Source: Actinomycetota bacterium (GTDB taxonomy: Bacteria; Actinomycetota; Aquicultoria; SKW223). From it: a DNA stretch of 58,672 nucleotides. The stretch is from positions 1 through 58,672 of the forward strand of contig JAOADC010000022.1 of the NCBI GenBank assembly GCA_026417515.1, in the 5' to 3' direction. The notes beneath the pieces were generated by a model. The model was not told where the DNA came from. It did not search any database and saw only the letters and a program-made list of their open reading frames with translations. Shown here one piece after another: positions 18,979 to 27,089 of this stretch. The translations under genes were made by a program, and so were the position numbers. Within the stretch, counting starts at the first letter, position 1, and every line of letters begins with the position of its first letter.

Positions 18979-19739
18979 GATTTCTGCTTGAACCAGAAAG
19001 GTCAGGGCCTTTTAATATGGCCCGCGACTTTTACTTTCTTAAGCAACTTGATGAAAATCCTGAACTTCCTGGTATTTTTACTGTCTATTCATTTAAGAAA
19101 CCATGTCTTTCATTAGGCAAGTTTCAAAAATCAGATGACGAAATTGTTTTTTCTTCAAAAAGATGTGGATTCGATGTTGTAAGAAGACCAACAGGTGGAA
19201 GAGCCGTATTACATGGCCCTTTTGAAAAAACTTACTCTCTTATATTATCAGTGGAATATGGTTTTAAGCCACGAAAAATAAGAGAAACCTACAACAGCCT
19301 TATGCCTATTTTTGATAACTTTCTAATGCAGTTTGGAATAAAAACATCCGATTCAAAAATCTCCAAGAAGGATCTTAATACGACCCTCAAAAACATTTGC
19401 TTCCTCGAAATTCACAGGTCTGACGTTTCAGTGAACGGTAAGAAAGCATTTGGAAACGCTCTCCTCTGGTTAAGAAATGCCTTTCTAATCCACGGAAGCA
19501 TCTACCTACGATTTGATGAGGTTCTTTTTAAAGATATTTTCGGATATGAAGCCGCACAGATATTTAAAAGCCAAACTTTCTTCCTTGAAGATACTCTGAA
19601 AGAAAAAACGAATGATAAGGCCATTGTAGACGCTTTTCTTCGTTCTCTTCAAATGTTTGGTTTTGAAATTGAAAGGACAACAATCGCACCTGAAGAAGAA
19701 GCAGAAATCAAGAAACTGGAACATATATTTTCTATTTAA
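18963..19739 (+). CDS. Lipoate-protein ligase / octanoyltransferase family protein (BPL_LplA_LipB catalytic domain only)
   Basis: It has the RRPTGGRAVLHG motif, is 258 aa, overlaps gcvPB by 16 nt and sits next to its likely GcvH substrate. Confidence 0.75.
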   Translation: MAGRLRFLLEPERSGPFNMARDFYFLKQLDENPELPGIFTVYSFKKPCLSLGKFQKSDDEIVFSSKRCGFDVVRRPTGGRAVLHGPFEKTYSLILSVEYGFKPRKIRETYNSLMPIFDNFLMQFGIKTSDSKISKKDLNTTLKNICFLEIHRSDVSVNGKKAFGNALLWLRNAFLIHGSIYLRFDEVLFKDIFGYEAAQIFKSQTFFLEDTLKEKTNDKAIVDAFLRSLQMFGFEIERTTIAPEEEAEIKKLEHIFSI

Positions 19740-19784
19740 TTAAAATATTGTTAAACTGAAACTTTAAAGTTAAGATTAATTCTG

Positions 19785-20312
19785 GTGATTAAAATGTCCA
19801 ACAATAGTTTTGCAAAAATTGAAAAGGCTCTTCTTTCTCTTGAGAATCTTTCTCAGAAAGAAATCGAAAACTCACTTGAATTCCTTTATGAGGAAGAAAA
19901 AAGGTTATCCAAAAAGAGACGCGAACTACACTTAAAGATAGATGAAACCAGAAAAGAAATCCTTTTAAGGCTAAAGAATCAGAAGAGGAAGGTAAGAAAA
20001 GAGGTTCTTGAAAACCTTGTAAAATCCCTTCTCAATCCAATCTTGAATTTACCAAAAGAACTATTGGTAGAAGACGAAAGAAATCCTGACCTGACAGTTG
20101 ATGTTAAATCCCTCAATTTTGAAGAAATTGAAAACTACTATAACCAACTTAGGGAAGAGGAGGCTCTGGTAAGTTTTAAGAGAAGGCTTGTCCAGGGAAA
20201 AATTGATCTGTTAAAAAACTGGCTTAGCCTAAAACAGACTATGCAAGAAGGAGCAAGTGACGAAGAGTTTGCTCGTACGTTAACAAAGTTACTCTCTGAA
20301 AAAGGCTTTTAA
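19785..20312 (+). CDS. Coiled-coil protein with two RsiG-type E-x3-S-x2-R-x3-Q-x3-D motifs (candidate c-di-GMP-binding protein)
   Basis: The composition is helical and K/E/L-rich. Residues 38-53 read EKRLSKKRRELHLKID and residues 126-141 read EALVSFKRRLVQGKID, forming an internal repeat. The start is GTG 19785 or ATG 19794. Confidence 0.6.
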   Translation: MIKMSNNSFAKIEKALLSLENLSQKEIENSLEFLYEEEKRLSKKRRELHLKIDETRKEILLRLKNQKRKVRKEVLENLVKSLLNPILNLPKELLVEDERNPDLTVDVKSLNFEEIENYYNQLREEEALVSFKRRLVQGKIDLLKNWLSLKQTMQEGASDEEFARTLTKLLSEKGF

Positions 20313-20325
20313 AGGAGGGTTTAGG

Positions 20326-20589
20326 GTGGCAGAAAAAAGACTCAGCGAAATCATCATGAAGTTTTTTGAAGAGATGGCAGTGGATGTGCTCGAAGAAAGA
20401 GTTGTTCAATATATCATCCGAGAGCTCAAAAATGGAAGAAAACTCCAGGAAATACTCAAAGACCCCTATGTCACAAATAGAATTCCAGAAGAGAGAATTA
20501 CAGATTTGCTGGCAAACAAGGAACTAATAGAAACCCTTGAAAAGGAAATACAAAAAACATTTGAAAAAGATCTGAATGTCTTCGATTAG
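20326..20589 (+). CDS. Hypothetical 87-aa acidic helical protein
   Basis: The GTG start lies 6 nt after AAAGGAGGG. It is tightly spaced between the coiled-coil gene and the FHA gene. I recognised no family. Confidence 0.6.
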   Translation: MAEKRLSEIIMKFFEEMAVDVLEERVVQYIIRELKNGRKLQEILKDPYVTNRIPEERITDLLANKELIETLEKEIQKTFEKDLNVFD

Positions 20590-20598
20590 GGAGAGGCT

Positions 20599-21063
20599 AT
20601 GACTATCAGATGCCCGAAATGTGGCACTGAAAATGATGAAACAGCAAAGAATTGCAAGGGTTGTGGCTTTGATATAAAGGAGCAAACTGTTGCCTTCGGG
20701 CCGGAGGAATCTGAAATAGTCAAAGGACAGATTTTTATTAATGTTCTCCCAAAGAAGAAGACTTTAACTGTTATCTTTCCTGAAAATATCAAGGAAACTT
20801 TCGAACTTGAGAATGGAACATATAGGGTTGGTAGGAATGAAAACAGTGAAATATTTTTAAATGACCTTACAGTTTCAAGAAACCATGCTGAAATCACGGT
20901 TAAAGGATCTGAAGTAATCATAAGTGACCTTGGAAGCCTAAATGGTACTTTCATAAACGGAAAGATAATCGATGGACCTCAGAAATTAAGAGACGGAGAC
21001 ATTATACAGTTCGGTAGATTCAGGCTTCTCTTTAAGGTCGGAGAGGTGAAGGAAAGTGAGTGA
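20599..21063 (+). CDS. Zinc-ribbon plus FHA domain protein
   Basis: An N-terminal CPKCG...CKGCG zinc ribbon is followed by the FHA core YRVGRN...VSRNHAEI...DLGSLNGTFINGK...GDIIQFG. Confidence 0.88.
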   Translation: MTIRCPKCGTENDETAKNCKGCGFDIKEQTVAFGPEESEIVKGQIFINVLPKKKTLTVIFPENIKETFELENGTYRVGRNENSEIFLNDLTVSRNHAEITVKGSEVIISDLGSLNGTFINGKIIDGPQKLRDGDIIQFGRFRLLFKVGEVKESE

Positions 21064-21721
21064 TAGAACTTACTCAATAAGTAAGGTAGTCGAGATGCTA
21101 AAGAACGAATTTCCAGATCTAAGCGTTTCCAAAATACGTTTTCTTGAATCTAAAGGTGTAATCAGTCCCAAAAGAAAAGAATCTGGTTATCGTGTTTTTA
21201 CCGATGAGGATATCGAACTTCTTAGAAAAGTGCTCATCCTTCAAAGAGATTACTTTATGCCCCTTAAGGTTATTAAAGAGAAAATTTCAAAGGGAACCCT
21301 ACCTAAAATTCCTGGTTCGTCTTCTCTAAATTCTCAAAAATCACTTAAATACGATGAAGTAATGAGAATGTTTAACGTTAACTATGATTTCCTTGATGAA
21401 CTTGAAAAGTTTGGACTTATTCAGGGATATCACACACAAGAAGGAAAGTTTTTCAACTCAGATGATGTAGAAATTATCGATCTTGCAGTCAAGTTTAGAC
21501 AGTTCGGGATTGAACCGAGGCACCTGAGAGTAATAGAAAACCTGGTCTCAAAAGAAGCTCTGTCTTTTGAACAGATTCTCTTTCCAATTGTCAGGCAAAA
21601 AACTGAGGAAAGTATAGACAACGCAAAACAGGTTATGGATACACTTATAAATCTGGCTACCTCTTTTCACAAACTCCTCATACAAAAAAGTCTGAAGGAA
21701 AAATTTCCTGAACTTTTCTAA
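21056..21721 (+). CDS. MerR family transcriptional regulator, FtsR-like
   Basis: It has the N-terminal MerR HTH with FPDLSVSKIRFLESKGVISPKRKESGYRVFT and DYFMPLKVIKEKI, a pattern typical of actinobacterial FtsR/Rv1828-like proteins. The GTG start overlaps the FHA gene by 8 nt. Confidence 0.85.
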   Translation: MSDRTYSISKVVEMLKNEFPDLSVSKIRFLESKGVISPKRKESGYRVFTDEDIELLRKVLILQRDYFMPLKVIKEKISKGTLPKIPGSSSLNSQKSLKYDEVMRMFNVNYDFLDELEKFGLIQGYHTQEGKFFNSDDVEIIDLAVKFRQFGIEPRHLRVIENLVSKEALSFEQILFPIVRQKTEESIDNAKQVMDTLINLATSFHKLLIQKSLKEKFPELF

Positions 21722-21737
21722 ATCTGCTTAACAAACA

Positions 21738-22268
21738 ATGAGAACAGAAGAACCCCCAAGGCTAATTGTTGACGCTATGCTTGGTAGGCTTGCAAAGAAA
21801 CTTCGCCTACTGGGAATCGATGCTGCTTACCACAGAGGTTCAGACAGAGAACTTTTTAAGAGGGCATTAACTGAAAAGCGAATCGTCGTTACAAAAGATA
21901 CCGATGCAGTTCGCACGAAGGCAGCAAAGTCCGTATTATCGATTCTCATTCCTAAGGAACTTAATGATTATCGTTCTCAAACTAGCTTTCTAATTAACGA
22001 GTTGAAAAAATTGGGGTTTAAAACATACAGTTTTTTTGGGAGATGTAGTCTCTGCAATTCAACCCTTATTCAAGTTAAAAAAATTTCAGCAAGCAAGATA
22101 ATTCCTTCTTATGTTTACCTTTATACAGGCAAAAAAATAAAGTTATGCCCAGTTTGCTTAAGGGCTTACTGGGAAGGCACGCACTTCAAAAAATTTACCG
22201 AAGATTTAAAGGTAGTTATGGAAAGAAGTGAAGAAGACATTTCCAACAAGCAAGTTCAAAATCGATAG
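21738..22268 (+). CDS. Mut7-C RNase domain (DUF82, PIN-like plus zinc ribbon) protein
   Basis: It has the N-terminal LIVDAMLGRLAKKLRLLGIDA and C-terminal CSLCN...CPVC...YWEGTHF. Confidence 0.75.
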   Translation: MRTEEPPRLIVDAMLGRLAKKLRLLGIDAAYHRGSDRELFKRALTEKRIVVTKDTDAVRTKAAKSVLSILIPKELNDYRSQTSFLINELKKLGFKTYSFFGRCSLCNSTLIQVKKISASKIIPSYVYLYTGKKIKLCPVCLRAYWEGTHFKKFTEDLKVVMERSEEDISNKQVQNR

Positions 22269-25891: not shown

Positions 25892-26203
25892 ATGCGAAAA
25901 GTATTTGGAAGTGCTTCAGACTTTTTTGAAGTTAAGCTTTATTATATTCAGGAAATAATACCTCAGGAATTTGATTGGGATGAACTCACAGCCTACATAG
26001 GACCAAGGACTCCTTTAGAACCAACAAGCAAAGCAAAATATGAAATTCAGTTCATAAGCAAGGAATCTGGTAAAGTCATAAAGAGGATAGAGTTTGAAAA
26101 TTCATCAGAAGCAAAACTAAAGTATCAGGAAGCAATTGACGATTTAAAAAATAGCGAGGTAATGGAGTTTACAAGTAAGTACGATCTGGTGCTGGAGGAT
26201 TAG
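25892..26203 (+). CDS. Hypothetical 103-aa protein (first gene of three-gene cassette)
   Basis: The ORF has no Shine-Dalgarno sequence, but a -10-like TAAAAT ends 6 nt before the ATG, suggesting a leaderless mRNA. Its stop overlaps the next start (TAGTG). Confidence 0.5.
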   Translation: MRKVFGSASDFFEVKLYYIQEIIPQEFDWDELTAYIGPRTPLEPTSKAKYEIQFISKESGKVIKRIEFENSSEAKLKYQEAIDDLKNSEVMEFTSKYDLVLED

Positions 26204-26649
26204 TGGGAATCTATTTTAATTATGATTACGAAGAAGGAAAGGAAGTTGAAAACTGGGTTCCTTGCTACTTGTGTGGAGAAAAGAAGGTTCTCTATGTCGA
26301 ATACCATATCAAGAAAGGACCTATCTATACGCTTCTTAACGATGAGGCTCGAAAATTATGGTCTGGGAGAGAGATAAAGATCGTCAGTGATACTTATTTA
26401 ATATGCGATGACTGCTATCAACAAAGACCTTCAGAAGATCTCATAATCTCAGAAATACTTAAGAAGAAGCGTCTATCCTCTCAACCACAAAAAGCAGAAA
26501 TCGATACAATAAAGGTTATAGAGAATGAAATCGAAGATGTTAAAGGCAAGATTACAGTACTTATGGAAAGGCTAGGGGAACTATACGAAAGGCTCGGTAG
26601 AGAAAAGGTCTTAAAGCAGAAAAAAATGCTTCAGAACAAGGAGGAATAG
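26203..26649 (+). CDS. Hypothetical zinc-ribbon (CxxC...CxxC) plus C-terminal coiled-coil protein, paralog A
   Basis: It has N-terminal MGIYFNYDY, four Cys in two CxxC pairs and a heptad-rich tail. It is a paralog of the next ORF. Confidence 0.65.
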   Translation: MGIYFNYDYEEGKEVENWVPCYLCGEKKVLYVEYHIKKGPIYTLLNDEARKLWSGREIKIVSDTYLICDDCYQQRPSEDLIISEILKKKRLSSQPQKAEIDTIKVIENEIEDVKGKITVLMERLGELYERLGREKVLKQKKMLQNKEE

Positions 26650-26651
26650 AG

Positions 26652-27089
26652 ATGGGTATTTACTTCAACTTTGATTTCAAGAACGGCAAAGAAGTGGAAC
26701 AGCCAGAAAGGTGCTATATATGCGGTAGACCGGATGTTTTATATGCTGAATACTACGTTCTTGATGGAGATGTATACCGTTTATATAAGAATGCTAGAAA
26801 AATTGTAAGAGGCAAGGAAATTCCTGTGGGCTCAAGAATTCATGCCATCTGCGAAGCCTGCCTTGAGAAATATCCTATGGAAGAGGATCTTGTTGAGGAA
26901 ATTCTTAAGAAACGCCACGAGGAAAAGAAAGCTGAAATTTATAAGGAAATACAGAATCTAACAAACGAAGCTGAAAACAAAAAACAGGAAATCGCGCTTA
27001 AAGAAAAAGAACTGGAAGTATTAAAGTCAGAGCTCGAAGAAATTTTAAACAGGATAGATAACCTAAAAAAGAACCTGGGTGAAAGTTAG
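26652..27089 (+). CDS. Hypothetical zinc-ribbon (CxxC...CxxC) plus C-terminal coiled-coil protein, paralog B
   Basis: It has N-terminal MGIYFNFDF and the same Cys spacing and EILKK linker as paralog A. A strong terminator follows. Confidence 0.65.
   Translation: MGIYFNFDFKNGKEVEQPERCYICGRPDVLYAEYYVLDGDVYRLYKNARKIVRGKEIPVGSRIHAICEACLEKYPMEEDLVEEILKKRHEEKKAEIYKEIQNLTNEAENKKQEIALKEKELEVLKSELEEILNRIDNLKKNLGES

Follow-up and report, generated by a model that had tools for sequence, protein, structure and literature searches.

The 58,672-nucleotide contig JAOADC010000022.1, analysed over its whole length (58.7 kb) and called the window here, carries a gene, rsiG, whose product, judged by its sequence, is a twin-motif member of the RsiG family and is already recognised as such by Pfam. 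RsiG of Streptomyces venezuelae (AmfC, Vnz_19430; structures 6PFJ and 6PFV) is a monomeric anti-sigma factor of WhiG, and the RsiG-WhiG pair is, to our knowledge, the only sigma/anti-sigma pair controlled by cyclic di-GMP (c-di-GMP). The window protein itself is an ordinary member of this family. What appears to be new is the order of its two repeat units, which are swapped relative to the Streptomyces protein, and the conserved locus in which its gene resides, where rsiG precedes genes for an FHA-domain protein and an FtsR-type regulator (rsiG-fha-ftsR).

The gene and its twin motifs

The coding sequence is supported by the list of open reading frames (ORFs), by the sequence itself, by database gene calls, and by matches of its product to Pfam and to RsiG sequences in the PDB.

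19794..20312, + strand: rsiG-like coding sequence, 172 amino acids plus stop
19896..19943, + strand: c-di-GMP-binding-type motif 1, EKRLSKKRRELHLKID, residues 35-50 (E35-x3-S39-x2-R42-x3-H46-x3-D50), conserved in orthologs
20160..20207, + strand: c-di-GMP-binding-type motif 2, EALVSFKRRLVQGKID, residues 123-138 (E123-x3-S127-x2-R130-x3-Q134-x3-D138), conserved in orthologs

A first-pass annotation of this DNA, made from the letters alone, had placed the ORF at 19785-20312. The ORF is real, but the start at GTG 19785 gives way to ATG 19794 (MSNNSF..., 172 residues), which is the start in public gene calls and in every ortholog and is preceded by a Shine-Dalgarno-like GGTGA. Residues are counted from this ATG, so that each number equals the earlier one minus 3, the GTG start having added three residues.

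Both of the E-x3-S-x2-R-x3-[Q/H]-x3-D motifs described in that annotation are present, at residues 35-50 and 123-138. When the pattern E...S..R...[QH]...D is run over all six-frame ORF segments of at least 60 residues (34,811 residues), it matches twice in the window. Both matches lie in the rsiG product, and the earlier remark that the other coiled-coil proteins of the window lack the motif is correct. Composition-preserving shuffles of the protein yield at least one match in 30 of 200,000 cases and two matches in none. Because single matches are this rare and double matches do not occur, the pair is not a composition artefact, as had been argued. The internal repeat formed by the two halves is also real when its local-alignment score is set against shuffles: an ungapped alignment of 66 residues scores 71 (z = 5.7), a value reached by 2 of 2,000 shuffled sequences.

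Family membership and conservation

RsiG proteins (Gallagher 2020, Schumacher 2021) have a Pfam model, PF22802 (RsiG-like), which matches two stretches of the protein with an E-value of 6.3e-17 and 61.5 bits, against a cut-off of 27. A single-sequence phmmer search with the protein gives E about 1e-4 for the RsiG of Rubrobacter radiotolerans (7LQ2/7LQ3/7LQ4) and E 0.004 for that of S. venezuelae (6PFJ). The profile comparison with RsiG that had been suggested is clearly significant, since a profile built from 18 relatives matches the S. venezuelae protein at E 8.8e-16 and the R. radiotolerans protein at E 2e-13.

A set of 5.8 billion clustered proteins contains only 12 close relatives, all of them metagenomic, and 479 matches at E <=1e-3 come from an exhaustive profile search that covered 1.84 billion representatives. 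The 12 close orthologs keep all ten motif positions with the sole exception of H46, which is F in one sequence, and all five positions of motif 2 are invariant. In an alignment of 18 family members that extends down to 25% identity (mean column identity 45%), E35, S39, R42, D50, E123, S127, R130 and D138 remain invariant, at least 90% of the sequences have His at position 46, and position 134 is always Q or H. The ortholog alignment thus bears out the expected constancy of E, S, R and D in both motifs. These residues are conserved while the surrounding sequence diverges, a pattern suggesting that they are under selection.

The histidine of motif 1 had been read as a deviation from the RsiG pattern, and this reading does not hold. 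A study of RsiG homologs reports His in place of Gln as frequent in the motif of helix alpha1 (PMC8325347). Among the sequences retrieved here, His is the usual residue in alpha5-type motifs as well. Pfam, the PDB sequence matches, motif conservation and the fold match described below all agree with the assignment of the protein as an RsiG-type, twin-motif one.

Reversed order of the repeat units

The repeat units of RsiG proteins occur in two flavours. Single-motif RsiGs and helix alpha1 of canonical twin-motif RsiGs have the 'A' flavour, x-S-[YF]-x-R-R-x-x-[QH]-G-[KR]-x-D. In the 'B' flavour, that of helix alpha5 in canonical RsiGs, Ser is not followed by an aromatic residue, nor Q/H by Gly. 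Architectures were counted in 161 sequences retrieved by the close-relative search and the exhaustive profile search.

A-B (canonical): 65 of 161
B-A (the window protein, 11 close orthologs and 10 more distant representatives): 22 of 161
A-A: 11 of 161
Single-motif: 14 of 161
Mixed or intermediate: 21 of 161
Unclassified: 28 of 161

The canonical order, with the alpha1-type unit first and the alpha5-type unit second, is reversed in the window protein. Unlike in S. venezuelae RsiG, its N-terminal unit matches alpha5 and its C-terminal unit alpha1, the latter being the unit that looks ancestral. HMMER places two crossed domains on the solved chain 6pfj_T: profile positions 103-153 match alpha1 (chain 21-71) and profile positions 11-69 match alpha5 (chain 115-173). 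When hhalign aligns the B-A profile with the A-B profile, the best match is likewise non-colinear, pairing columns 99-182 with 18-97 (probability 98%, E 2e-13). Hidden Markov models (HMMs) built from each half of the window clade give the same picture from the other side. With the C-half model, canonical N-terminal units reach about 20-37 bits, as against about 0-15 bits with the N-half model, and canonical C-terminal units show the converse pattern.

In an anchored alignment, the window N-terminal unit is nearer to canonical C-terminal than to canonical N-terminal units in 200 of 200 bootstraps, and the window C-terminal unit is nearer to canonical N-terminal units in 189 of 200. A neighbour-joining tree and an anchored BLOSUM comparison of the units agree with the reversed order. 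The C-terminal unit also aligns over an entire single-motif RsiG (hhalign probability 99.4%); in the case of R. radiotolerans RsiG, window residues about 100-170 cover the whole protein, short C-terminal helix included. Unlike single-motif RsiGs, the window protein has two units in each chain and does not need to homodimerise, and its first unit has lost the aromatic residue that follows Ser as well as the Gly that follows Q/H. A swap of repeat units relative to the studied Streptomyces RsiG appears not to have been described.

Two routes could have produced this order, namely circular permutation of an A-B gene or divergence of the N-terminal copy in place, by separate or reciprocal specialisation. 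The halves of the window protein are more alike than those of canonical RsiGs (mean BLOSUM 0.72 versus 0.20). The two units resemble each other just as much as they resemble their canonical counterparts (mean BLOSUM 0.72 in both comparisons), and the N-terminal unit is no nearer to canonical alpha5-type units than to its own C-terminal partner (122 of 200 bootstraps). A-A forms from Solirubrobacterales metagenome-assembled genomes (MAGs) and intermediate forms occupy the same locus, and in the Gaiellales N-terminal unit the aromatic residue has been lost and the Gly kept. Because these forms share the locus and the window units are close to each other, we lean towards in-place divergence.

The metagenomic RsiG family is far more varied than its two published architectures, A-B and single-motif. 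Additional forms include A-A twins in Solirubrobacterales MAGs, intermediate x-A twins in Gaiellales MAGs, and short B-B-like proteins (P0087, P0116). Single-motif forms of 86-115 residues are very abundant, with about 8,000 clusters at E <=1e-6.

Predicted fold

The two units correspond to two long helices in the model that AlphaFold2 builds from the ortholog alignment. The model has a predicted local distance difference test score (pLDDT) of 79 and a predicted template modelling score (pTM) of 0.71.

19854..19985, + strand: long helix 1, residues 21-64, repeat unit 1, 'B' flavour, most like S. venezuelae RsiG alpha5 (AlphaFold2 with DSSP, crossed profile domains versus 6pfj_T, half-HMMs, neighbour-joining tree)
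20118..20246, + strand: long helix 2, residues 109-151, repeat unit 2, 'A' flavour, most like single-motif RsiGs and S. venezuelae alpha1 (AlphaFold2 with DSSP, phmmer, hhalign, profile)

The top PDB match in Foldseek is S. venezuelae RsiG, 6pfv_E, with a probability of 0.99, template modelling scores of 0.51/0.55, and 163 aligned columns. The E-value of this match is only 0.19, which is the usual level for coiled coils, and the remaining PDB matches are antiparallel coiled coils. Like S. venezuelae RsiG, the window protein combines two motifs and two long helices in one chain, and it is of similar size (172 residues versus 176 in the solved chain).

The residue indices of facing motif ends sum to the same value as those of the helix ends joined by the linker: E35+D138 = D50+E123 = 173 = 64+109. 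If the helices pair end to end, with residue i facing 173-i, E35 would stand opposite D138 and D50 opposite E123, which would bring the motifs into register. As for the antiparallel hairpin that had been proposed, the two long helices and the match to the RsiG fold are therefore found in the predicted structure, and the side-by-side placement of the motifs is suggested by the residue numbers together with the modelled helix ends. Swapping the units of an antiparallel hairpin should preserve the motif-to-motif geometry and move the connecting loop to the opposite end.

A conserved rsiG-fha-ftsR locus

The arrangement around the window gene recurs in 18 fetched basal-type RsiG loci (L001-L016, L098 and L099; 19 counting the window), which were annotated by tblastn and, for L098 and L099, from gene tables.

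Window clade, L001-L006: G+C content (GC) 40-45%
Second low-GC clade, L007 and L009: GC 38-39%
Gaiellales-like, L008 and L012: GC 72%
Solirubrobacterales MAGs, L010 and L011: GC 62-65%
Single-motif RsiG of about 89 residues, L013-L016, L098 and L099: GC 71-73% (L013-L016)

An FHA gene lies directly downstream of rsiG in 18 of the 18 loci, with a small ORF (orf87 or orf90) intervening only in the low-GC clades. The ftsR gene comes next in 16; of the other two, L016 ends inside the FHA gene and the L098 contig has fragmented genes. The outer flanks are wholly different from one locus to another, the upstream gene being pgsA, a penicillin-binding protein gene or lplA. RsiGs found at this locus include single-motif, A-A, x-A and B-A types. 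The single-motif, homodimeric RsiGs known from Rubrobacteria and Thermoleophilia thus have metagenomic counterparts that share the Zn-ribbon-FHA/ftsR locus with the window.

Canonical A-B loci differ. The comparison set consists of 80 high-GC RsiG loci from Joint Genome Institute (JGI) metagenomes, 25 of which extend at least 1.5 kb downstream, and neither FHA nor FtsR is found downstream of rsiG in any of these 25. The window rsiG, in contrast, lies upstream of both genes, and its host has a GC content of 39% as compared with about 71% at canonical loci.

The FHA and FtsR-like MerR neighbours noticed in the first-pass annotation are thus confirmed by Pfam and NCBIfam, and this position of rsiG is moreover conserved in deep-branching lineages. 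The rsiG-fha-ftsR order looks like an ancestral arrangement that was kept in these lineages and lost in crown groups. Because the locus is shared, and because the single-motif type that occurs there binds WhiG and c-di-GMP in experiments described in the accessible text of PMC8325347, the window gene is best seen as the positional ortholog of a bona fide RsiG. Such shared ancestry fits the FHA-FtsR neighbourhood at least as well as a new partner does. In Actinobacteria, ftsR always follows odhI/garA, and the region upstream of odhI is variable (PMC6683498). No paper naming both RsiG and FtsR was found in the literature searched, and the locus appears to be undescribed.

Apparent fusions of RsiG to FHA (P0348) and to the Zn ribbon (P0305, P0325) were considered as a functional link and rejected. 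They are frameshift artefacts from the long-read contigs ERZ250395xx, which contain many fragmented genes. Split proS, ispG and ftsR genes indicate indel errors in the ENA contigs of this series (L013, L014, L098 and L099), and their predicted proteins are untrustworthy.

Genes for GGDEF-domain proteins occur within a few kb of rsiG-fha-ftsR in L008 (13156-14608), L012 (13152-14596), L007 (18219-19034) and L099 (1-667), with no equivalent in the window. In the Gaiellales-like loci, a FliW gene adjoins the GGDEF gene. In the Solirubrobacterales MAG L011 (1-9936), rsiG-fha-ftsR follows pyrH, frr, uppS, cdsA, dxr, rseP, ispG, proS and pgsA. In Streptomyces and Bacillus, rpsB-tsf-pyrH is closely preceded by whiG or sigD. 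If the same order holds in the L011 lineage, the distance between whiG and rsiG there could be no more than about 10-15 kb.

Neighbouring genes in the window

The block in the window reads lplA, rsiG, orf87, Zn-ribbon-FHA, FtsR, Mut7-C.

20326..20589, + strand: orf87, a conserved small helical protein without an assigned function, separated by 13 nt from the end of rsiG; orthologs in L001, L004, L007 and L009 at 49-76% identity
20599..21063, + strand: Zn-ribbon plus FHA-domain protein, positional equivalent of odhI/garA (Pfam FHA E 1.7e-21, plus Zn-ribbon domains)
21056..21721, + strand: FtsR-type MerR regulator, overlapping the FHA gene by 8 nt (NCBIfam TF_FtsR_Actino 187.5 bits versus a cut-off of 150)
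21738..22268, + strand: Mut7-C domain protein, whose gene closes the tightly spaced, co-oriented block (Pfam Mut7-C E 1.2e-31; syntenic in L001, L004, L007 and L009)

The genes of the block overlap or lie 10-13 nt apart, and no terminator-like site is found on the + strand from 19739 to 22268. The rsiG gene is probably co-transcribed with the FHA gene and ftsR.

The orf87 family, with products of 87-90 residues, is confined to the two low-GC clades, where it separates rsiG from the FHA gene; among the fetched loci it is absent from the Gaiellales, Solirubrobacterales and single-motif ones. Its product matches nothing in Pfam, in PDB sequences or among PDB folds, the last searched with a single-sequence AlphaFold2 model (pLDDT 84).

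Known OdhI and GarA proteins carry a phospho-acceptor tail at the N-terminus. Unlike OdhI, the window FHA protein begins with a Zn ribbon (CPKCG...CKGCG), a form also encoded in L010, L011, L014 and L015, and with 76 bits it falls under the 200-bit cut-off of the NCBIfam OdhI equivalog and is not assigned to it. The FtsR assignment is clear, and orthologs of the window FtsR contain the Rv1828_C domain.

As in the odhI/garA-ftsR clusters of Corynebacterium glutamicum (cg1630-cg1631) and Mycobacterium tuberculosis (Rv1827-Rv1828), the FHA gene is directly upstream of the FtsR gene and overlaps it. The window departs from the cluster as described in having rsiG and orf87 directly upstream, and from the classical four-gene form, which continues with a bifunctional nuclease and a second MerR regulator, in having the Mut7-C gene (PMC6683498).

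Sigma factor and c-di-GMP context

No sigma factor is encoded anywhere in the 58.7-kb window, let alone beside rsiG, as the first-pass annotation had observed. A tblastn search with Escherichia coli FliA finds no sigma-28 gene in the window or in 96 RsiG loci (L001-L096), and with the gene tables of L098 and L099 included the count of flanking sigma-28 genes is 0 in 98 RsiG loci.

That annotation had taken the lack of an adjacent sigma factor as a sign of a new partner or output. The claim is not supported by this observation. The S. venezuelae rsiG gene is itself about 1.5 Mbp from whiG, and RsiG was discovered by a two-hybrid screen and not by synteny (PMC7005675). Since the characterised gene is so far from whiG and none of the 98 loci is flanked by a sigma-28 gene, a missing neighbour is no evidence for a different partner; in this respect, with its gene apart from any sigma gene, the window protein resembles S. 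venezuelae RsiG. A survey covering 673 actinobacterial genomes found a WhiG homolog wherever RsiG occurs (PMC12871210).

Signs of c-di-GMP signalling in the window DNA were also sought. An Rfam scan at gathering thresholds finds no c-di-GMP riboswitch in the window. The promoter consensus TAAA-N14-17-CCGATA has no match there, and GCCGATA occurs twice against 2.2 expected, which makes this count uninformative.

Proposed mechanism and alternatives

We consider it moderately probable that the window protein is a twin-motif RsiG-family member that acts as a c-di-GMP-clamping hairpin and sequesters a WhiG-type sigma-28 factor encoded elsewhere. The chain is predicted to fold into an antiparallel two-helix hairpin. 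By homology with the solved RsiGs, motifs facing each other across this hairpin would clamp a c-di-GMP dimer, and the loaded protein would then sequester the WhiG-type factor encoded at another site in the genome.

Several points weigh against this proposal. Both c-di-GMP binding and the hairpin are predictions. In the solved complexes, sigma regions 2 and 4 are contacted by extensions that lie beyond the coiled coil; reversal of the units rearranges these extensions, and partner specificity could differ. GTDB species representatives were scanned twice, once with the RsiG-clade alignment and once with that of FtsR, and neither scan recovers a relative. Finally, genes for WhiG/sigma-28 and for GGDEF, EAL and HD-GYP proteins are absent from the window, as is a sigma-28-type promoter, although the missing sigma, GGDEF and EAL genes say little on a contig of housekeeping genes.

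The conserved neighbourhood invites a different, unlikely explanation, in which the protein senses c-di-GMP and acts chiefly on a product of its own operon. That target might be FtsR, the Zn-ribbon-FHA protein or the orf87 product, which would couple c-di-GMP to ftsZ transcription or to the 2-oxoglutarate node instead of, or besides, WhiG. Adjacency of rsiG and the FHA gene persists in all 18 basal-type loci despite unrelated flanks and GC contents from 38% to 73%, and the tight spacing of the window genes, with no terminator-like site between them, points the same way. The stimulus that controls FtsR is unknown (PMC6683498), and in Gaiellales-like loci a GGDEF gene follows ftsR at a distance of 1-2 kb. 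Against this, the adjacency may be inherited gene order, the single-motif type at the locus having been shown to bind WhiG (PMC8325347). Canonical RsiGs function away from fha-ftsR, which none of the 25 canonical loci has, the apparent fusions that would have tied RsiG to its neighbours are artefacts, and the literature search linked RsiG to FtsR in no paper.

Still less probable is a c-di-GMP-dependent anti-sigma factor that the swapped units have retargeted to a sigma factor outside the WhiG2 clade. The regions outside the coiled coil would indeed be rearranged by the reversed order, and RsiG does not bind WhiG1-clade sigma factors, a sign that its specificity is tunable (PMC12871210). However, the protein retains both an alpha1-like and an alpha5-like flavour, which suggests the same asymmetric partner, and the window encodes no candidate alternative sigma factor.

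A generic coiled coil with chance motif matches and no nucleotide binding, which the K/E/L-rich helical composition and the weak Foldseek E-value (0.19 at best) might suggest, is effectively refuted by the sequence evidence, namely the absence of double motifs from 200,000 shuffles, the persistence of the motif residues to 25% identity amid diverging surroundings, and the significant profile matches to solved RsiGs.

Host and remainder of the window

The host is probably an uncultured, low-GC (39%), deep-branching member of the Actinomycetota. This placement is suggested by the FtsR equivalog score, by the FHA-ftsR pairing (PMC6683498) and by RsiG itself. The reported range of RsiG is confined to Actinobacteria/Actinomycetota. 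The nearest named relatives of the window RsiG are in Gaiellales and Solirubrobacterales MAGs, and neither an Rfam scan nor a tRNA scan finds rRNA or tRNA genes in the window.

The gene order in the window is that of a classic Gram-positive core: pnp, an M16 peptidase gene, dapB, the RNase J gene, uppP, ftsK and a rodZ-like gene. Further core genes include pgsA, cinA, recA, recX, rny and, farther on, miaB, miaA, dapF, hflX, lexA and nrdD/nrdG. RNase Y, a split GcvPA/GcvPB and an anaerobic ribonucleotide reductase would be an unusual mix if the host belongs to the Actinomycetota.

Three small co-oriented ORFs of 103, 148 and 145 codons occupy 25892-27089 on the + strand. The 148- and 145-residue products are tandem paralogs that start with MGIYFN and contain Cys-x2-Cys pairs followed by a coiled coil. 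Loci L001 and L004 contain ORFs that match the trio in size and position and have no Pfam matches.

Implications

RsiG has served as a worked example of a symmetric fold that evolved through one intragenic duplication. The swapped form, together with A-A proteins and intermediates at the same locus, suggests one of two courses, namely that duplication or subsequent specialisation of the copies occurred repeatedly, or that a circular permutation took place. Either course would refine the published scenario for the family.

Cell division is the process under WhiG control in Streptomyces sporulation. If rsiG was originally linked to odhI/garA-ftsR, the locus would provide a testable lead joining c-di-GMP/WhiG signalling to the control of cell division. 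It is conceivable, though doubtful, that rsiG-fha-ftsR forms a functional module in deep-branching Actinomycetota, passing a c-di-GMP signal both to WhiG and to an FHA/FtsR switch that acts on ftsZ transcription and 2-oxoglutarate metabolism, whether directly or through co-expression. Were this so, the module would supply the long-sought input of FtsR, and the swapped-unit form would be an independently specialised twin-motif sensor.

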